Source: Vicinamibacterales bacterium
Lineage (GTDB): Bacteria; Acidobacteriota; Vicinamibacteria; Vicinamibacterales; UBA8438
DNA length: 64,000 bases
NCBI GenBank assembly: GCA_965263195.1
Contig: OZ253664.1
Location: 1,763,949-1,827,948 of the forward strand
Direction: 5' to 3'
Below the pieces are notes generated by a model. That model ran no database searches, was not told where the DNA came from, and saw only the letters and a list, made by a program, of their open reading frames with translations. The translations under genes and the position numbers were made by a program. Positions within the stretch are counted from its first letter, which is position 1; each line of letters begins with the position of its first letter. Of the stretch, positions 2,075-57,891 are shown piece after piece.

Positions 2075-3064
2075 ATGCTGAGCGGACGCAGCCTTGCGAG
2101 ATTCGTCGTCGTGGCGGCGCTGATGGCGCCACTGGTGTCCTGTCAGTACCTGGACCAGGTGAGCGCGCTGCGGACGTTCAAGGAGGCCAACTCGGCGTAC
2201 GGCCGCGGCGACTACGTGCTGGCCGCGGAGCGTTACGAAGAGATCCTGGCCATTCTTGAAACGGCCGGCGCGGGCGACCAGCTGCTGAACCAGCAGCTGA
2301 CCGCCACCTACTTCTACATCGCGAACTCGTACGACAACCTGTACAAGCCGGGACGGCGCGGCGAGCCGGAGAACGACGCCTACCTGGAAGACGCCGTCCG
2401 GTACTACACGCTGGCGTCAGAGGAGATTGTGGAGCCGAGCCTGAGGCGGCTGTCGATGCAGTACCTGGTGTCGGCGTACGGCCCCGATAAGGCGAATGAT
2501 CCGGCGGCCTCGGAACCGGTGCTGCGCCAGATGATCCTGCTCGACCCCGAGAACCCCGACAACTACTTCGCGCTGGCGAACCTGTACGAGCAATCGGGCC
2601 TGTTCGAAGACGCCGAGGCGGTGATGCTGGAGGTGAGGAACCTGCGGCCGGACGACCCGATCGTCTACCTGCAGCTCGCCGGCTTCTACAACCGCTCCGG
2701 CGAGTTCGAGCTTACCATCGACGCCCTGGAGCAGCGTGCGCGCATCGAGCCGGACAATCCCGAGGCGTTCTATACGATTTCGACGTTCTACTGGGAAAAG
2801 GCGTTCCGGGACTTCCGGATTACGCAGGACCAGAAGGCCGAGTACATCGCCGCCGGGATCGCGGCTGCGGACTCTGCGATCGGCCTCAACGACCGCTACG
2901 TGGACGCTCTCGTCTACAAGAACATCCTGCTGCGCATGCAGGCGAACATGACCACCGACGTGGACGAGCAGGAAGCGCTGATCGCGGAAGCGGACGAGCT
3001 CCGCAGCCGAGCGGAGGAGTTGCAGAAAGAGCAGCGGGCCGGAGGAGCAGCACCCGCCGCCTAG
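2075..3064 (+). CDS. TPR-repeat lipoprotein
   Basis: The ORF track gives 2051..3064. The second ATG at 2075 follows a purine-rich AAAGGGGAAG stretch and yields a lipoprotein signal peptide, MLSGRSLARFVVVAALMAPLVS|C, with lipobox LVSC. TPR-like repeats are present (YFALANLYEQSGLFEDAEAVMLEV, YLQLAGFYNRSGEFELTIDALEQ). The stop TAG (3062-3064) lies inside the CTAG terminus of the repeat element. Confidence 0.8.
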   Translation: MLSGRSLARFVVVAALMAPLVSCQYLDQVSALRTFKEANSAYGRGDYVLAAERYEEILAILETAGAGDQLLNQQLTATYFYIANSYDNLYKPGRRGEPENDAYLEDAVRYYTLASEEIVEPSLRRLSMQYLVSAYGPDKANDPAASEPVLRQMILLDPENPDNYFALANLYEQSGLFEDAEAVMLEVRNLRPDDPIVYLQLAGFYNRSGEFELTIDALEQRARIEPDNPEAFYTISTFYWEKAFRDFRITQDQKAEYIAAGIAAADSAIGLNDRYVDALVYKNILLRMQANMTTDVDEQEALIAEADELRSRAEELQKEQRAGGAAPAA

Positions 3065-3136
3065 CAGCGCGTGGTGAAACCCCGCGTCGCACCGAGACCG
3101 GTCGAATGCAGCGGGGCTTTTGCCACGGGCTGCTAG
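3061..3136. repeat. MITE/REP-like element, shortest form (two arms only, 76 bp imperfect palindrome)
   Basis: Sequence is CTAGCAGCGCGTGGTGAAACCCCGCGTCGCACCGAGACCGGTCGAATGCAGCGGGGCTTTTGCCACGGGCTGCTAG. The termini CTAGCAGC/GCTGCTAG are perfect inverted repeats. The same arms flank the longer copies at 12870, 14356 and 48052. Confidence 0.85.
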
Positions 3137-3161: not shown

Positions 3162-3192
3162 GAGGGCCGGGGATTCCCCCGGCCCTCTTTTT
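3162..3192 (+). terminator. rho-independent terminator of the TPR lipoprotein gene
   Basis: GAGGGCCGGGG-att-CCCCGGCCCTC forms an 11-bp GC-rich stem and is followed by TTTTT. Confidence 0.75.
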
Positions 3193-3311: not shown

Positions 3312-3782
3312 CTAGCCGACCGGAGCCGCGCCGGCCGCGCGACGCATCCCTTCGGTCACAATCCCGACCTTGTCGACGCCTGCCCCTTTGGCTGCGTCGA
3401 TCACGTCGACGATTTCGCCGTACGTCAACGAACCGGCGCCCGCGATGAACATCGTCTTGTTACGCCGCGTCTCGAAAATCTCGCGCAGCCTGGATTCGAG
3501 ACCCACGATGGTGACGTCCTGGTTGTTGATTGAAATCCGCCGATCGGCAGTGTACTCCAGCACGATCTGGCTGCTGTCGGCGGCGGCCTGCGCCGACCCC
3601 TGCGTCTCGAGGGGCAGGTTGATGTCGAGACCGCGTTGATTCAACGGCAGCGCCGCCAGGAAGATGACGATGAGGACCAGCAGCACGTCGATGAACGGCG
3701 TGATGTTGATCTCGGAGTTCGCCTCGGGCTTCTCCGCCTGGACGACGGACTCCGCGCCATGATGCTTGTGGTGGTGCGCCAT
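3312..3782 (-). CDS. exbD: ExbD/TolR family biopolymer transport protein
   Basis: 156 aa with a single N-terminal TM segment (INITPFIDVLLVLIVIFLAALPL) and an ExbD-type periplasmic domain. Last gene of the tonB-exbB-exbD-exbD cluster. Confidence 0.9.
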   Translation of the reverse strand: MAHHHKHHGAESVVQAEKPEANSEINITPFIDVLLVLIVIFLAALPLNQRGLDINLPLETQGSAQAAADSSQIVLEYTADRRISINNQDVTIVGLESRLREIFETRRNKTMFIAGAGSLTYGEIVDVIDAAKGAGVDKVGIVTEGMRRAAGAAPVG

Positions 3783-4998: not shown

Positions 4999-5718
4999 TT
5001 ACTGCAGCGTGAAGTTCACGGTCACCGTCATGATGACCGGGACGGGCACGCCATTGAGCAGTGTGGGAGTGTACTCCCACTGCTTCACCGCGGTAACCGC
5101 CGCCTCGTCGAGCAGCGGCACCGACCGCAACACCTTGACGTCGGTGACCCGCCCGCTCGGACCGATCACGGCCTCAAGAATGACGATGCCCTGCACACGC
5201 GCCGACTGCGCAACCGGTGGATAGACCGGAGGCACGTCCCGGGTCTTGGTCGGCGGCGAGATGTTGCCGCCCACACGCACGGGCTCGGGTGGGGGCGGAG
5301 GCGGAGGGGGCGCTTCGATGATGCCCCCGACGATCCCTCCCGACACGACGCCGCCTACGATACCACCCTCGACACCGCCTACCGCGGACAGGTCGAACCC
5401 GGTCTCCTCCACGATCTCTATGGGAGCGACCACCGGCGCCGCATTCGGGTTGATGTCAATGATCGGGGGCGGTTCCGGCACCGCGGCAGTGGGCGGCGGG
5501 GGGGGGGGAGGTGGGGGTGGAGGCGGCGGTGGCGCGGCCACGAACGCCATCATCGACGCCGGCGTCGGCAGCACTTCGGTCGCCATCAAGGGAACGATCA
5601 CAATGGCACCGATCGCCGCGACATGGGCCACGATGGAGAGCGGCACGGTGTACCACTTGCGCGACCCCACTCTGATCGAAGGGTTTGCGATCTCACCAAA
5701 CATTTGACCGGCTGCCAC
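4999..5718 (-). CDS. tonB: TonB family energy transducer
   Basis: N-terminal TM anchor, two poly-proline linkers (a P15 run and a P9 run) and a TonB C-terminal domain (PPVYPPVAQSARVQGIVILEAVIGPSGRVTDVKVLRSVPLLDEAAVTAVKQWEYTP). The GTG start at 5718 is preceded by AAGGAGG with a 6-nt spacer. Confidence 0.9.
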   Translation of the reverse strand: MAAGQMFGEIANPSIRVGSRKWYTVPLSIVAHVAAIGAIVIVPLMATEVLPTPASMMAFVAAPPPPPPPPPPPPPPTAAVPEPPPIIDINPNAAPVVAPIEIVEETGFDLSAVGGVEGGIVGGVVSGGIVGGIIEAPPPPPPPPEPVRVGGNISPPTKTRDVPPVYPPVAQSARVQGIVILEAVIGPSGRVTDVKVLRSVPLLDEAAVTAVKQWEYTPTLLNGVPVPVIMTVTVNFTLQ

Positions 5719-5903: not shown

Positions 5904-8012
5904 TCACAACATCCAGGCGACGACGAGGGGTGCGAAGATCACGGCGACGACGCTCATGAGCTTGATCAGGATGTTCAGGCTCGGTCCCGACGTGTCCTTG
6001 AACGGATCGCCGACCGTGTCGCCGATCACCGCCGCCTTGTGCGGCTCGGAGCCCTTGCCGCCGTGGTGCCCTTCCTCGATGTACTTCTTGGCGTTGTCCC
6101 ACACGCCGCCGGCGTTCGCCATCATCAGCGCCATCAGCACGCCGGTGACCAGCGCGCCGGCCAGCATCCCGCCCAACCCGGAAATGCCTAGCAGGAAGCC
6201 AGTGGCCACCGGCGCCAGCACCGCGATCAGCCCCGGCACGACCATTTCGCGGATGGCCGAGCGCGTGGAGATCTCAACGCAGCGGGCCGAATCGGGCTCG
6301 GCGTCGCCGGCGAGCAGGCCGGGAATCTCCTTGAACTGCCGGCGCACTTCTTCGATCATGGCGTTCGCCGAGCGCCCTACAGCGTTCATCGTCAGCGCCG
6401 AGAACAGGAACGGCAGCATACCGCCCAGCAGCAGGCCGATCAGCACGTTCGGGTTGTCGAGCGCCAGATCGAGAAGGCGCGGATTGAAGACGGCCGCGCC
6501 TCCCGCGTCCGCAACCGCGGTATCGGCCGTCGCGCGGAACGTGCTGAACAACGCGAGCGCCGTCAGCGCCGCCGACCCGATGGCGAATCCCTTGCCCATG
6601 GCGGCCGTCGTGTTGCCAACCGCGTCGAGCGCGTCGGTGCGCTCGCGGACGAACGCTTCGCAGCCGCTCATTTCCGCGATCCCGCCGGCGTTGTCGGCGA
6701 CCGGACCGTAGGCGTCGACGCCCAGGCTGATGCCCAGCGTGGAGAGCATGCCGACGGCGGCGATGGCAATCCCGTAGAGCTCCGCCTGCGAATAACTGAA
6801 GTAGATCGCCAGGCAGATGATGACGATCGGCAATGCGCAAGACATCATCCCGACGCCGAGGCCGGCGATGATGTTGGTGGCCGGGCCGGTCTCCGACTGC
6901 TGGGCAATTCTGTGGGCCGGCGGCTTGTCCTTGCCCGTGTAGTACTCGGTGACCTGGCCGATCAGCACGCCGGCCGCAACGCCGGTAACCACGCACCAGA
7001 GCACGGCCACCGGAATGTCGATCAGGACGATGAGTCCGCCGGCCCCCACGAAGACGAGCACCGACGCGACGAGCAGGCCGCGCTGCAGGGCGCTGCCGAT
7101 CTTGGTTTCATCGTCGGTGTTCACCACGAACGTGCCGAGAATCGAGGCAACGATGCCGACACCCGCCAGCAGGATGGGAAACATCACGAGCCTCGACTGC
7201 AGCGCGCCGAAAGCAGCCTCGTCGACACCCCATAGCGCGGCGGCCGACGACGCGCCCAGCGCCCACGCGAGCGCGATGGAGGCAATGATGCTCCCGACGT
7301 ACGACTCGAACAGGTCGGCGCCCATGCCGGCAACGTCGCCCACGTTGTCGCCGACGTTGTCGGCGATGGTGGCCGGGTTGCGCGGGTCGTCCTCCGGGAT
7401 GCCCGCCTCGACCTTGCCGGACAGGTCGCCGGCGACATCGGCGGCCTTCGTGTAGATCCCGCCGCCGACACGGGCGAACAGGGCGATCGACGAGGCGCCC
7501 AGCGAGAAGCCGAACAGCGACTCGACTGCGCTTGCGCCGGCGCCGGCGAGGCCGCCGTAAGCCATGTACAGGACGGAAATGCCCAGCGTGCCGAGCGCGA
7601 CCACCGTCAGGCCCATTACCGCGCCGCTGGAAAACGCCACCCGCAGCGCGCTGGACAGGCTCGTGGTCGCCGCGTGCGTCGTGCGCACCGCCGCGCTCGT
7701 GGCGGTCCGCATCCCGATCCAGCCGGCGCTGGCCGACAGCAGCGCGCCGACGAGGAAAGCCACGGCGGTCAGCAGCGCGTTGCCCGGGAGAAACGCCACC
7801 AGGATGACGAACATGATGGCTACGAAGCCCGCCAGGACGGTGTACTCCGTCTTCAGGAAAGCCATGGCGCCGGACCGGATCAGGCCGGCGATACGCTGCA
7901 TCCGGTCCGTGCCGGGGTCGTGTCGGTTGATGCTGCGGATCAGGAAGAAGGCGAAGAGCGCCGCCGCCACCGGCGCGCCCATTCCGAATACGAAATACAG
8001 TTGCTGTGTCAT
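5904..8012 (-). CDS. hppA: membrane-bound pyrophosphatase (ion-translocating PPase), K+-dependent-type motif
   Basis: 702 aa polytopic protein with PPase signatures ([44 protein letters not shown]). The motif reads [10 protein letters not shown] (Ala, not Lys), the signature of the K+-dependent subfamily. H+ versus Na+ specificity cannot be decided from this. Confidence 0.92.
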
Positions 8013-11338: not shown

Positions 11339-13125
<1,787 letters not shown>

Positions 13126-13176: not shown

Positions 13177-14337
13177 GTGAAACGCGTGCGGGTCGGGATT
13201 GTATATGGCGGCCGATCGAGCGAGCACGAAGTGTCGCTGGCATCCGCCGCCGCCGTGATCGCGCACCTGGATCCCGAACGCTACGAACGGATCCCGATTC
13301 ATATCGGCAGGGACGGCCGCTGGTCGCTGGCCGGCGAGCCACGCGGGTCGCTGACGGCGGCCGAGGCGATCGCGAGCGCGCGTTCGTCGCGCGGGGCTGG
13401 CGGCGACGCGCCGTCCGCGCAGGAGGTGCATTTTCTCCCGCGCCCGGCCGCGGCGCAGCTGCTCACGGTGCGGCCCGTTACCGGAGTCGCCGGCGATCGG
13501 GCGGACTTCGGGATGCTGGCGCTGGACGTGGTCTTTCCGCTCGTGCATGGCCCGTACGGCGAGGACGGCACGCTGCAGGGCCTGCTGGAGCTCGCCGGCG
13601 TGCCGTACGTGGGGGCGGGCGTGCTCGGCTCGGCCGCCGGCATGGACAAGGCGGTGGCAAAGACGCTGTTCGCCGCGCGCGGCCTGCCGATCACCCGTTA
13701 TGCGGTGGTGCGGGCGGCGCAGTGGGACGCGGGGGAAACCGCCGTGCTCGACGACCTGGAGCGCCGCCTCAACGGCCCGCTCTTCGTCAAGCCGGCCAAC
13801 CTCGGTTCGAGCATCGGCGTCTCGCAGGCGGCGAACCGCGCGGCGCTGGCGCGGGCAATCCGCCATGCCCGGCGGTTCGACCGGAAGATCCTCGTGGAGG
13901 AGGCGGTGCCGGATCCGCGGGAGCTGGAATGCGGCGTCATCGGCAACGACGCGCCGGAGGCTTCGCTGCCCGGCGAGATCGTGCCGGCCGGCGACTTCTA
14001 CGACTACGAATCCAAATACGTCGACGCGCGGTCCACGAGCGTCGTGCCGGCGGTGCTCGCGCAGGCGCGGGCGTCTGAAATACGGAAGCTGGCCATCGAG
14101 GCGTATCGCGCCATCGAAGCGGCCGGCATGGCGCGCGTCGATTTCCTGCTGTCCCGCTCTACCGGCCGTCTCTACGTGAGCGAGGTCAATACGATTCCGG
14201 GTTTCACGACGATCAGCATGTTCGCCAAGCTGTGGGAGGCAACGGGTTTGGACTACCCGCGGCTGCTCGATCGCCTGATCGAGCTGGCGTTCGAACGCCA
14301 CCGGGAACGCAGGGACCTGCGCACCAGCCTCAACTGA
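13177..14337 (+). CDS. ddl: D-alanine--D-alanine ligase
   Basis: Ddl motifs are present (VGIVYGGRSSEHEVSL, FPLVHGPYGEDGTLQGLLE, VKPANLGSSIGVS, EVNTIPGFT). The GTG at 13177 is preceded by GAGGG with a 7-nt spacer. The ORF-track start at 13102 lies inside the repeat. Confidence 0.92.
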   Translation: MKRVRVGIVYGGRSSEHEVSLASAAAVIAHLDPERYERIPIHIGRDGRWSLAGEPRGSLTAAEAIASARSSRGAGGDAPSAQEVHFLPRPAAAQLLTVRPVTGVAGDRADFGMLALDVVFPLVHGPYGEDGTLQGLLELAGVPYVGAGVLGSAAGMDKAVAKTLFAARGLPITRYAVVRAAQWDAGETAVLDDLERRLNGPLFVKPANLGSSIGVSQAANRAALARAIRHARRFDRKILVEEAVPDPRELECGVIGNDAPEASLPGEIVPAGDFYDYESKYVDARSTSVVPAVLAQARASEIRKLAIEAYRAIEAAGMARVDFLLSRSTGRLYVSEVNTIPGFTTISMFAKLWEATGLDYPRLLDRLIELAFERHRERRDLRTSLN

Positions 14338-14355: not shown

Positions 14356-14649
14356 CTAGCAGTCTGTGGTGAAACCCCGCGTCGCACAAAGAACGGCGAG
14401 GCGCTCGTCCGACAAGGCGCGAGGAGGGAGCATATTCGAAGACATGTGACTTAGGAACAACGCAGTCAGGAAGGGGGACGACGAGCACTCAAGCAGTCGT
14501 CCCCCAAGCCGCACACAGTGCGCCTCGGCGGACACGGCGCGGGGCGAAGGGGTCCCCGCTAGCGGCCGCCGGGGGTTTAGGGCGCAGCCCCAAGTGGTAA
14601 TGCCGCAGCGCCGGTCGAATGCAGCGGGGCTTTTGCCACAGGCTGCTAG
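14356..14649. repeat. MITE/REP-like element, longest form (294 bp)
   Basis: Bounded by CTAGCAGTCTGTGGTGAAACCCCGCGTCGCAC and CCGGTCGAATGCAGCGGGGCTTTTGCCACAGGCTGCTAG. It contains the core, an extra perfect 10-bp hairpin (GGGGGACGAC..GTCGTCCCCC) and the GC module. It has the same orientation as the copy at 12870. Confidence 0.88.
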
Positions 14650-16859
14650 GGGTCGAACGGCTGCACGCCGTCCCAGACGCGGACGCGCAGCATCGCGTCG
14701 CCCGGTTGGATCTGATCCACGACCTCCATGCCGTCGACCACCCGGCCGAATACGGTGTACCGGCCGTCGAGCCGGGGTTGCGGCAACCGCGTGATGAAGA
14801 ACTGGCTGCCCCCGGTGTCCTGCCAGTCGAGCGCCATGCCGACCGTGCCGCGGAGAAACGGCAGCTGGTTTATTTCGTCCCGGATCGTGTAGCCGGGACC
14901 GCCCTCGCTGTCGCTGCGCGGATCTCCGCCCTGCACCACATAGTTACTCACGGCGCGATGGAACGTCAGGCCGTCGTAGTAGCCGCGACGCGCCAGCCGC
15001 ATGAAGTTGGCGGCAGTGAGCGGCGCTTCGAGCACGGCCAGCTCGATCTGAATCGTGCCCCGGGCAGTATCTATGTACACGTGCGGCGATACGCTCGGAA
15101 CAACGAGGTCGCGCGCACCGTAGTCCGTACCGCCGGTCGGCGCAGGTCTGATCCGGGCGCCGTGATCCATGCCGGGCACGAGGTCCTCCAGGCGTTGGAC
15201 AGCGCGGATCCGCACCGCCCAGTCGCGATCAGCGAGCGCAGTCGTCAGGATGTCGCGACCGCCTGCGCCGCCGATGGCGCCTGCGGCGTCGATGATTGCC
15301 GCACGCGCCAGGTACTCCGGATCTTCGGCGGCGGCGGCGTAAGCCTTGGCGAGCGCCTCGATCGCGTCCGGCGGCTGCACCACGCCGAGCAACGTGGCCG
15401 CGGTCTTCTTCACGACGACGTCGTCGTCCTCGAGGTGCTCGATCAGTACCGCCCCGGCTTCCGGCACCCCGAGACCGACCAGCGCCGAGAGGACCGCCGG
15501 CACAACCCTACGATCGGCGTCGTCCAGCATCCCGATCAGATACGGCCCCGCCACCTCCGGCCCCGCGTACACCAGTCCGTCGGCCAGCGCGACGCGCACG
15601 CGCCAGTCCGAATCCGGTTCGATTCCCGACAACACCAGCAGGAACATTTCCGCGTCCGCCTCAGCGAGTCCGCGCAGAGCGGCGGCGCGCATCAGCGGCC
15701 ACGGGTCCGACAGCAGCTCGACGAACACTTGTACGACGACCGGATCGGCGCGGCCAGCCAACGCCACGACCGTCTCGTAGCGCAGCATCGGATCGATGTC
15801 CCGCCGCACGACGAACTGCCGCAGCGTCTCGGTCGCCGCCGGCTCCCGGAATTGCGCCAGCGCCCGCAGCGCCGCCAGCAGGACGCGCCGGTCACGCCGC
15901 TCCGGATCCAGCAGCTCGATCAGCGGCGCGACGGCGGCCGGATCGCCCAGCGCGCCCAGTCCCCGCGCCGCCAGCGACACACCCACGCTGCCCTGCACAC
16001 CGACGAGCGTGCTGAGGGCCGGGAATGCCCGCGCGTCGTCAATCCGCGAGAGGACGTCGGCGACCGGCCACCACCAGATCACCGGCTGGCCGTTCGGCTG
16101 CAGCAGCGCGGCCGCCAGCGGCTCGAACGCGCGGAGCTCAGCCAGGGCATACAGTCCGAGCCGGAACGCCTCCACTTCCGGTGTCTGGGGATAGGAGAGA
16201 TCTTCCGGGTCAATCCCGTACGTCTCGATGATGTAGCGGCTTACCAGCTCGCGAATTGCATCCCGGGCGCCGTCCACGCCGAGCCGGCCCAGCGCCTCCG
16301 CCGCCCGCCCCTGCACGAGCGGCGAGGAATCCCGCAGCGCGAGCAGCAGCGGCTCGGCCGCCGCTTCGTCGCCGATCAGGCCGAGGGCGAACGCCGCCAT
16401 TTGGCGCACCTCCGGCTCCGGATCGTGCAGGGCCACCGCCAGCGGCGTGATCCCCTCGGAACGTCCAACCCGGCCGACCGCCAGCGCAGCGCGGCGGCGC
16501 ACGCGCGGCGCGTCATCGGCCAGCAGGTCGACGAGATCAGGTACCGGGCGCAGCGCGGCCGGCGGCGTCGCCGCGGGAGGCTCCGCGGCAGAGGATGTCT
16601 CGGCCGCCGCGGGGATCTCCTCGCGCGGCGGCGCGTCCGGATCGCGGAGCACACGCTGGTCTTCCAGGCGCAGGATCCAGCCCAGCTTCTCCTGGAGGGG
16701 GGGCGGGCCGACAGGAACCGCCGGGGGGGCCGCGCCGGCGCAGCCCGCGACTGCGGCAAGCAGGCCTACCCGGACCGCAAGCGACGTCGGTCGGAGCCGT
16801 GTCTGCGTCACGTCAAGCGGAGGATGGACGGCGGCAACCACCCGCCGTCGGCGCGCCAT
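14646..16859 (-). CDS. HEAT-repeat protein fused to a C-terminal cyclophilin-type peptidyl-prolyl isomerase; probable lipoprotein
   Basis: The C-terminus is cyclophilin-like (YYDGLTFHRAVSNYVVQGGDP..GTVGMALDWQDTGGSQFFIT..LDGRYTVFGRVVDGMEVVD). The preceding ~500 aa are HEAT/PBS-lyase-like repeats (repeated ..VR..AA.ALG..GD..A...L...L.D). The N-terminus reads LAVRVGLLAAVAGC, with lipobox VAGC. The start is uncertain: ATG 16859, GTG 16811 or the ORF-track 16889. The stop lies within the CTAG end of the repeat. Confidence 0.8.
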   Translation of the reverse strand: MARRRRVVAAVHPPLDVTQTRLRPTSLAVRVGLLAAVAGCAGAAPPAVPVGPPPLQEKLGWILRLEDQRVLRDPDAPPREEIPAAAETSSAAEPPAATPPAALRPVPDLVDLLADDAPRVRRRAALAVGRVGRSEGITPLAVALHDPEPEVRQMAAFALGLIGDEAAAEPLLLALRDSSPLVQGRAAEALGRLGVDGARDAIRELVSRYIIETYGIDPEDLSYPQTPEVEAFRLGLYALAELRAFEPLAAALLQPNGQPVIWWWPVADVLSRIDDARAFPALSTLVGVQGSVGVSLAARGLGALGDPAAVAPLIELLDPERRDRRVLLAALRALAQFREPAATETLRQFVVRRDIDPMLRYETVVALAGRADPVVVQVFVELLSDPWPLMRAAALRGLAEADAEMFLLVLSGIEPDSDWRVRVALADGLVYAGPEVAGPYLIGMLDDADRRVVPAVLSALVGLGVPEAGAVLIEHLEDDDVVVKKTAATLLGVVQPPDAIEALAKAYAAAAEDPEYLARAAIIDAAGAIGGAGGRDILTTALADRDWAVRIRAVQRLEDLVPGMDHGARIRPAPTGGTDYGARDLVVPSVSPHVYIDTARGTIQIELAVLEAPLTAANFMRLARRGYYDGLTFHRAVSNYVVQGGDPRSDSEGGPGYTIRDEINQLPFLRGTVGMALDWQDTGGSQFFITRLPQPRLDGRYTVFGRVVDGMEVVDQIQPGDAMLRVRVWDGVQPFDP

Positions 16860-16882
16860 GATAGCATGCGGGCCGCCGGTCC

Positions 16883-17605
16883 GTGGCACACGCCGGGCCG
16901 GCCGCTCTGCGGCTCGGGCCTGCCCCGCAGACTGCTATACTGCGAGGCACCTTGGACTTTCAGTATCTTGCCATCGAAGGTCCGATTGGCGCCGGCAAGA
17001 CAACCCTCGCCCGACATCTCGCACTCAGGCTCGACGCGACGACGGTCCTCGACCAGACCGACAATCCATTCGTCGCCGACCTGTACGCCGGCCGCCCCGG
17101 CGCGGCGTTCCAGGCGCAGCTGTTCTCACTGCTCGCGCGCCACCGCCAGCAGTCGATGCTGCGGCAGACGGATCTGTTCAATCAACTGGTCATTGCCGAC
17201 TACCTCTTCGACAAGGACAAGATCTACGCCTACCTCAATCTGGACGACAACGAGCTGTTCATCTACCAGCGGCTCTATGACCTGCTCGTACCGGAGCTCG
17301 TCACCCCGGACCTCGTCGTCTACCTCCAGGCGCCATCCGACCTCGTACGCCAGCGCGTGCGCCAGCGGCTGCAGCACGATTCGGACGCCGCTCCACTACC
17401 GGACGACACGTACCTCGGCGAGTTGAACGAGGCGTACAACCACTTCTTCTTCCACTACAACGCGACGCCCTTGCTGGTGGTCGAAACCTCGGAGTTCACC
17501 CTCGACTGGGACGCAGCCGCCCTGGACGATCTGATTCGGCAGCTACGCGATATGGGCCGCGGAACGCGCTATTACGTGCCGCGCACCGGGCCCAACCCGT
17601 CTTGA
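16883..17605 (+). CDS. deoxynucleoside kinase family protein
   Basis: P-loop YLAIEGPIGAGKTTLA and a dNK-like body (DYLFDKD..FIYQRLY..PDLVVYLQAP). The start is uncertain: the ORF track uses a GTG at 16883, and an in-frame TTG at 16952 sits just before the conserved N-terminus. Confidence 0.75.
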   Translation: MAHAGPAALRLGPAPQTAILRGTLDFQYLAIEGPIGAGKTTLARHLALRLDATTVLDQTDNPFVADLYAGRPGAAFQAQLFSLLARHRQQSMLRQTDLFNQLVIADYLFDKDKIYAYLNLDDNELFIYQRLYDLLVPELVTPDLVVYLQAPSDLVRQRVRQRLQHDSDAAPLPDDTYLGELNEAYNHFFFHYNATPLLVVETSEFTLDWDAAALDDLIRQLRDMGRGTRYYVPRTGPNPS

Positions 17606-31724: not shown

Positions 31725-31812
31725 GAGTGGCAAAAGCCCCGCTGCGCCTGATGGCTGCAGGAGTGTGAGGTGCGGATGCCGTCCGCGGCTCGCACTGATC
31801 AGACATATTGGA
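31721..31812. repeat. truncated/degenerate copy of the MITE/REP-like family
   Basis: CTAGGAGTGGCAAAAGCCCCGCTGCGCC matches the arm CTAGCAGCCTGTGGCAAAAGCCCCGCTGCATTC. The remainder has diverged, with ..TCAGACATATTGG possibly a core remnant. Confidence 0.45.
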
Positions 31813-48051: not shown

Positions 48052-48216
48052 CTAGCAGCCTGTGGCAAAAGCCCCACTGCATTCGACCGGCGGTGCATCC
48101 CGCCTGAGCTGCGTTGCTCGTCGGTCACATATCGAGAATATGCTCCCTCCTCGCGCCTTATCAGCCGGGCGCCTCGCCGGTCTCGGTGCGACGTGGGGTC
48201 TTGCCACAGGCTGTAA
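48052..48216. repeat. MITE/REP-like element, 165-bp form (arms + AT-rich core), inverted relative to the copies at 12870 and 14356
   Basis: Sequence is CTAGCAGCCTGTGGCAAAAGCCCCACTGCATTCGACCGG ... GGTCACATATCGAGAATATGCTCCCTCCTCGCGCCTT ... GGTGCGACGTGGGGTCTTGCCACAGGCTG. It fills the whole lepA-gltA spacer. Confidence 0.85.
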
Positions 48217-57815: not shown

Positions 57816-57891
57816 GGGCCCATAGCTCAGCGGTCAGAGCCGCCGGCTCATAACCGGCTTGTCCCAGGTTCGAATCCTGGTGGGCCCACCA
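57816..57891 (+). tRNA. tRNA with CAU anticodon (elongator tRNA-Met or lysidine-modified tRNA-Ile2), CCA encoded
   Basis: Hand-folded cloverleaf:
- Acceptor stem GGGCCCA/TGGGCCC.
- D-arm GCTC-AGCGGTCA-GAGC.
- Anticodon stem GCCGG/CCGGC with loop CTCATAA.
- T-arm CCAGG-TTCGAAT-CCTGG.
- Discriminator A plus CCA.
The G1-C72 pair and the lack of three G-C pairs at the base of the anticodon stem argue against an initiator. C4-G69 and C5-G68 resemble E. coli TilS determinants, so Ile2 is possible. Confidence 0.9.

Follow-up and report, generated by a model that had tools for sequence, protein, structure and literature searches.

ERIC (enterobacterial repetitive intergenic consensus), which is carried by E. 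coli genomes, is ~127 bp long, and the Correia element of Neisseria (CREE) is ~104-157 bp. Size variants of ERIC arise by internal deletion and insertion, and we know of no parent insertion sequence for either element. ERIC copies are TA-flanked and intergenic, form a stem-loop when transcribed, often lie at gene ends, and are often co-transcribed (PMC3184786). TA is also the target of the IS630 family, whose members insert there with a preference for CTAG and make a 2-bp duplication, occasionally of AA or TT (PMC2170065). In this study, we analysed a 64-kb stretch of DNA from a Vicinamibacterales bacterium (64,000 nucleotides of contig OZ253664.1, hereafter the window), and found that it contains four copies of a previously undescribed element of a known kind, an ERIC/Correia-like bacterial MITE. 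The element is a non-autonomous inverted-repeat transposon located between genes. Taken as a whole, the observations are very probably best explained by a TA-inserting MITE which has a strand-specific conserved hairpin and whose size variants are due to deletion and to a nested repeat.

Like ERIC and Correia, the element is a small non-coding intergenic repeat with terminal inverted repeats and TA at both termini, and it would form a long stem-loop when transcribed, often at gene ends. Its size variants by internal deletion and insertion are another feature shared with ERIC. Unlike ERIC in sequence, it has no blastn match in 5,426 E. coli genomes, nor in the plasmids and phages searched in the same way. 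It occurs in uncultured bacteria of three phyla (Acidobacteriota, Gemmatimonadota, and Gammaproteobacteria) and not in a single family, and its predicted rod-like fold differs from those two in having three tandem G.A steps as well as a conserved G.U. The spread over three phyla, the strong strand-specific covariation, and the conserved non-canonical motifs set it apart from a routine case. The first-pass annotation, made from the letters of the window, did not recognise a described family, and this judgement stands: against Rfam 15 only a tRNA at 57816-57888 of the window reaches the gathering score, permissive scans of the copies gave only sub-threshold, chance-level matches, a viral contig collection gave none, and a literature search returned no description of this family.

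The four copies lie at 3061-3136, 12870-13125, and 14356-14649 on the plus strand and at 48052-48216 on the minus strand, in the positions and orientations first given for them, and when the window is searched with a covariance model trained on copies of other genomes, these four are recovered and no fifth. The right-arm core CCGGTCGAATGCAGCGGGGC has four matches at up to two mismatches where 0.06 are expected, and the left-arm core has six where 0.7 are expected, four of the six being the copies. At 31727-31745 (-), 19 nt identical to the central part of the right arm (ATGCAGCGGGGCTTTTGCC) stand alone without the rest of the element, and the covariance model did not detect them. The canonical unit is ~160 bp, with two ~38-bp arms that are imperfect inverted repeats, running from GCAGCCCGTGG... 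to ...CCACGGGCTGC, and a self-pairing interior; the outer 13 bp of the arms form nearly perfect terminal inverted repeats. Direct inspection of the four copies bore out the first-pass description of the arms as imperfect reverse complements, together with the correlated substitutions it listed (CCCCGC/GCGGGG, CCCCAC/GTGGGG, the G.T intermediate of the 12870 copy, and the U.G/G.U positions). The ghost peptides that it had ascribed to the right arm do come from there, as ATG CAG CGG GGC TTT TGC CAC in the arm gives them. The element accounts for spurious ORFs such as MQRGFCH..., including a 935-aa ORF starting at 14619 which is an annotation artefact, and also for the unusual lengthening of intergenic spacers in many uncultured, apparently marine MAGs.

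Three of the window copies are presence/absence polymorphisms when orthologous loci of graded relatives, retrieved with LepA and Ddl of the window as queries, are compared. The 14356 copy is absent from all four relatives examined, at 96-84% Ddl identity. The empty site in the relative L101 reads GGGACGCC-TA-GGGCTCGAACGG, in short GCC-TA-GGG, and the filled site of the window reads GGGACGCC-TA-[GCAGTCTG...CAGGCTGC]-TA-GGGGTCGAACGG, in short GCC-TA-[GCAG...CTGC]-TA-GGG. The element proper is therefore the 288-bp long variant at 14359-14646, and the duplicated TA stands at 14357-14358, inside the CTAG of 14356-14359, and at 14647-14648. Similarly, the 12870 site is empty in L101, L102, and L104 (CGG-TA-TACTAC) and filled in the window (CGG-TA-[TCAG..CTGA]-TA-TACTAC), with a 252-bp long variant at 12872-13123 (+) between TA at 12870-12871 and TA at 13124-13125. 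A fourth relative, L103, has a variant of the 12870 type at the same site (1705-1951) with the same internal structure. The 48052 copy is missing from four relatives (96-89% LepA identity), in which the citrate synthase gene abuts lepA, and is present in the same-species contig L096; the comparison of lepA sites is consistent with TA duplication. This copy is the 159-bp canonical form at 48055-48213, with its sense strand on the minus strand and with TA at 48053-48054 and 48214-48215. For the fourth copy, a 70-bp arms-only deletion form at 3064-3133 (+), the sequence itself has TA at 3062-3063 and 3134-3135. Outside the window, L098 carries one more polymorphic copy, which L097 lacks, and a copy in L077 has itself received a short copy, at a TA of its apical hairpin.

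These comparisons show that the element inserts into TA, preferably within CTAG, and duplicates the TA. The first-pass annotation had called the element CTAG-bounded, which no longer holds: comparison of empty with filled sites makes CTAG the preferred target plus the TA duplication and not element sequence, the outer C and G belonging to the flank. The flanks of 66 copies agree. The inner flank bases are conserved (G at left position 4 in 59 of 66, C at right position 1 in 57 of 66) and the outer ones are looser (C in 43 and G in 42 of 66), an asymmetry predicted by a 2-bp duplication in an xTAy target around an element G-CAG...CTG-C. Furthermore, conservation is mirror-symmetric at both ends, as expected for two equivalent inverted-repeat ends. 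At CTAG sites, a 4-bp, IS5-like duplication of CTAG would be indistinguishable in sequence from the 2-bp one. The 12870 site excludes it, however, with GTAT standing against ATAT, and it also misfits the asymmetry of inner and outer bases. CTAG as part of the stem was likewise rejected, as non-CTAG flank tetramers are direct repeats in eight cases and mirrored in three, and the empty sites settle the matter.

The size variants noticed in the first-pass annotation are real, but they do not form the single modular series that was proposed there: the short copies are internal deletions of the element that keep only the arms, and the long ones contain an unrelated nested repeat. In the covariance model, the 70-bp window copy (78.6 bits) is the canonical element minus 90 model positions with its arms kept, and forms of ~62-78 nt make up 13 of the 99 copies listed. 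The GC-rich module and the perfect hairpin had been taken for modules of the element, and instead belong to a separate repeat, here called module B (..GCGGCGCGGGGCGNAGGGGTCCCCGCTAGCNGCCGCCGGGGGTTTGGGGCGCAGCCCCA..), which also stands alone elsewhere. It is found at L026 3500-3585 (-), where its ~85 nt lie between a stop codon and the RBS of the next gene, and at L008 ~2085-2225 (+), where ~130 nt lie outside any MITE copy. The window has two occurrences against 0.01 expected, a short form at 12986-13069 and a long form at 14473-14602 (both with approximate ends, + strand), the latter including the 10-bp perfect hairpin GGGGGACGAC..GTCGTCCCCC that had been correctly reported for the 14356 copy. 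Module B is also seen at L103 ~1800-1893 and L027 ~3400-3425. Within MITE copies (12870 and 14356 of the window, L103, and L027) it always stands just 5' of ...CCGGTCGAATGC, and this fixed internal position, together with the free-standing examples, indicates that the long forms are a subfamily which acquired a second repeat, either by capturing it or through invasion by it. Comparison of module B with Rfam gave chance-level matches only.

Species-representative genomes were scanned with the 19-nt core CCGGTCGAATGCAGYGGGG, which matched at least 95 stretches of DNA, and a covariance model (R1) seeded with 20 canonical copies finds at least 99 distinct copies of 62-280 nt in 0.81 Mb. This census, of the kind that the first-pass annotation had envisaged, resolves the listed copies into classes of ~62-78, 95-101, 164, 175-188, 200-227, and up to 280 nt. 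The dominant class is that of 164 nt with ~30 copies, so that the 48052 copy is the typical family form, and the 294-nt form of the 14356 copy is an outlier. The hosts among the matches listed are mostly Vicinamibacterales or other Vicinamibacteria, plus one Bryobacterales (Acidobacteriota), Longimicrobiales (Gemmatimonadota), and three Gammaproteobacteria including Ca. Rariloculus; a match in a Chloroflexia MAG looks like chance. The record names suggest that the hosts are marine, host-associated MAGs, and these host orders have been reported from sponges in the literature. Gammaproteobacterial and acidobacterial copies reach 0.88-0.90 identity with each other, which equals the spread within a single genome (0.81-0.91), and such cross-phylum identity of non-coding DNA points to horizontal spread between phyla. 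The distribution over three phyla thus implies recent horizontal transfer of the element and of its mobiliser. The Longimicrobiales variant is found twice in L094, at 2693-3055, where the two copies stand head-to-tail with a junction ..GCTGCCAGCAG.. common to both.

The strand that folds carries CCGGUCGAAUGCAG in its 3' half, and a single long rod is predicted for it. A 20-bp stem forms the outer part of this rod, which further comprises two invariant internal loops, a stem with a conserved G.U, and an AU-rich apical hairpin. The invariant loops lie near the arms, where the 19-mer core is located, and the G.U pair is kept in 64 of the 71 copies scored. Three 2x2 interior loops place 5'-GA-3' opposite 5'-GA-3' (tandem G.A), each bracketed by covarying Watson-Crick pairs. 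Double compensatory changes are seen in 27 of 59 pairs in the seed of 20 and in 37 of 59 in 74 copies, in which 94.6% of cells are paired, and compensatory cells number 262 against 73 +/- 6.5 after shuffling (none of 500 shuffles reaches the observed value) and 27-50 with the partners slid; in all these counts the copies are related by descent, so that events are not independent, and the large alignments were fitted to the model. The structured fold which the first-pass annotation had suspected from covariation in four copies thus holds on 74-99 copies, with compensatory substitutions maintaining the pairing across the three phyla. In the orthologous pair L007/L023, a comparison of sequences after insertion found only five differences.

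The polarity of the fold is evident from the mismatches that the stems tolerate. The stems of 99 copies have 357 G.U against 96 A.C, or 259 against 96 when the two conserved G.U columns are removed, and this excess of G.U over A.C means that one strand of fixed polarity folds. For the 48052 copy, the covariance model gives 179.5 bits in sense and 53.1 in antisense. The RNA minimum free energy is -98.7 kcal/mol (z -10.1) for the sense strand and -86.4 (z -6.0) for the complement; with DNA parameters the values are -48.5 and -44.9, a strand gap of 3.6 kcal/mol compared with 12.3 for RNA. The first-pass annotation had argued from the wobble pairs that the fold was one of RNA and not of DNA. The strand-specific single-strand fold in this argument was retained, but the exclusion of DNA was too strong, because G.T pairs also form in single-stranded DNA hairpins. 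Thus, the data strongly support a strand-specific single-strand fold, be it of RNA or of ssDNA.

What keeps the fold is most probably selection acting on the transcript. Copies in UTRs and intergenic spacers would be read through with the neighbouring genes, and the hairpin would then be a determinant of RNA stability or processing, as with ERIC or Correia. Alternatively, the fold may serve the propagation of the element itself. It is also conceivable, although we regard it as unlikely, that the rod is more than a by-product of inverted repeats. With its invariant internal loops, its conserved G.U, and its tandem G.A steps, it would then be a functional RNA or ssDNA domain that binds protein and is maintained by purifying selection; a TA-inserting transposon would have carried it horizontally across three phyla, and it would rewire the expression of neighbouring genes, the copy against the lepA start codon being an example. 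With at least 99 copies, the family offers a large natural data set for separating selection on a fold from selection on transposase binding sites.

The window is ordinary chromosome, with relA/spoT, exbD, hppA, secD, yajC, tgt, ddl, and lepA. The 3061 copy begins in the TAG stop codon of a TPR gene (2111-3064), whose intrinsic terminator (3162-3187) lies downstream of the copy; located between stop codon and terminator, the copy should be co-transcribed in sense. Facing intrinsic terminators, 3162-3187 (+) and 3273-3243 (-), separate the TPR gene from exbD, and the 3061 copy lies in the 3'UTR, upstream of the first of them. The order around ddl is tgt(-), the 12870 copy, ddl(+), the 14356 copy, and a HEAT/cyclophilin gene(-): the 12870 copy is situated between the starts of tgt (12840, -) and ddl (13177, +), and the 14356 copy between the stops of ddl (14337) and the HEAT/cyclophilin gene (14646-16889, -). 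Accordingly ddl (13177-14337) is bracketed by two directly oriented long copies, both with the nested second repeat. The closest Ddl relative (96%) has neither of them, and the 12870 copy is common to the window and the 88% relative L103, a distribution out of step with Ddl identity. The 48052 copy separates lepA from a citrate-synthase-like gene, and its end adjoins the ATG of lepA (48051) directly, as ..GCTGCTAG|ATG. In relatives that lack this copy, the citrate synthase stop overlaps or abuts the lepA ATG, so the insertion replaced any translational coupling or RBS there.

Within the family, none of the 99 copies listed lies inside a gene called by a crude gene caller, which mis-called ddl. 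With the same caller, orientation is weakly biased (23 tandem co-oriented copies against 14 antisense, approximate numbers), and approximately 26 copies lie between divergent and 15 between convergent genes; a gene stop codon falls in the left end of the element 15 times and in the right end nine times. A sequence scan found no sigma-70-like promoter and no canonical intrinsic terminator inside the element. Copies stand in 3'UTRs, between divergent promoters, and against a start codon, positions which make them candidates for lineage-specific changes in gene expression.

The strength of the covariation raises the question of whether the family is primarily a structured non-coding RNA gene with its own expression, acting in trans or binding protein, for which multi-copy state would be secondary. 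Besides the covariation, the G.U conserved in 64 of 71 scored copies, the invariant internal loops and three tandem G.A steps kept across three phyla, and RNA energies that part the strands better than DNA energies (12.3 against 3.6 kcal/mol) would all fit such a gene. However, the copies are made by DNA transposition, as the polymorphic insertions with their duplicated targets show, and they occur in both orientations relative to neighbouring genes and directly on stop and start codons. Deletion forms without interior, ~62-78 nt and 13 of the 99 copies listed, have nevertheless spread, and the element has no promoter-like or terminator-like signals. We therefore consider an RNA gene family quite improbable as the primary identity.

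The fold might instead be a transposition substrate, as in a REP/REPIN-like element whose ssDNA hairpin is moved by a RAYT (HUH, Y1) transposase. Like REP, BIME, and REPIN sequences, the element is palindromic and hairpin-forming with correlated changes in its arms; its copies are exclusively intergenic, its fold is strand-specific with compensatory changes between arms, its arms-only 70-bp form is REPIN-like in size, and REP-like GTAG-hairpin repeats exist in one of these genomes. Unlike them, it has 38-bp arms with a structured interior and its insertions duplicate the target TA, and target duplications are, to our knowledge, not known for REPs or REPINs. The mirror-symmetric conservation of the ends fits two equivalent inverted-repeat ends, and the loci examined contained no RAYT-like gene, whether near copies or between single arms. 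An origin by RAYT activity is thus very unlikely, and of the MITE/REP-type assignment in the first-pass annotation the MITE part was confirmed by the empty sites with TA duplication and by the nested copy, and the REP part was not, since TA is duplicated. The strand-specific fold and conserved structure could also recall an IS200/IS605-type element of which a remnant is left, or a TnpB/IscB-type guide-RNA scaffold that has become an orphan, but as far as we know IS200/IS605-type elements have neither terminal inverted repeats nor target duplication, and both are present here. No tnpA/tnpB-sized ORF adjoins any copy and no Rfam match was obtained, and such a remnant is extremely improbable. Taken together, TA duplication and inverted repeats place the element outside the definitions of both REP/RAYT and IS200/IS605.

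The TA-inserting MITE encodes no protein, so a transposase made elsewhere would have to move it. An IS630/Tc1-mariner DDE transposase, acting by cut-and-paste on terminal inverted repeats, is the most likely mobiliser, as far as we can infer from target behaviour. Insertion into TA with a 2-bp duplication is shared with IS630, ISY100, Tc1-mariner, and their MITEs such as Stowaway, and so are terminal inverted repeats beginning near TA|(G)CAG; further points of likeness to IS630 are that CTAG is preferred and that the duplication is occasionally not TA but, for example, AA (PMC2170065). In contrast to IS630/Tc1-mariner, an autonomous element or cognate transposase gene with the element's ends, the search for which had been suggested in the first-pass annotation, was not found in the ~0.9 Mb examined. 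The arms of the element also covary with each other, which transposase binding to inverted repeats does not require. As a DDE transposase reads double-stranded inverted repeats, it leaves the compensation between arms and the strand-specific fold unexplained, and something else must select the hairpin; an RNA role, an ssDNA step, and hairpin-templated repair are the alternatives.

Several candidates for an autonomous relative were examined and rejected. An arm pair 2.4 kb apart in L012 proved to be two split remnants around crotonase-ssb-infA, a left-arm fragment at 5186-5211 and a right-half fragment at ~7540-7650 in the same orientation, possibly left behind when two copies rearranged with each other. 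Uncalled gaps of more than 700 nt beside copies, considered as transposase loci, contain ordinary genes (rsmE, clpX, and an oxidoreductase). An orphan arm in L049, considered as an autonomous end, belongs to a truncated copy interrupted by tandem REP-like units: in place of its interior it has, at 6270-6345 (-), a 34-nt unit repeated three times in tandem (CTGTAGGGGCAACCCTTGTGGTTGCCCGGTTCGT; GTAG and then a hairpin). Inverted 10-mer termini 0.6-3.5 kb apart were mostly GC-rich noise, and the sole real case, in L042, is a group II intron. This intron (~129-2112) interrupts a MITE copy within its left arm, where it separates GCAGCCCGTGGTG from AAACCC; it begins with GTGCG and ends with CTAC, and contains a 452-aa RT/maturase ORF (603-1961) with a YADD motif.
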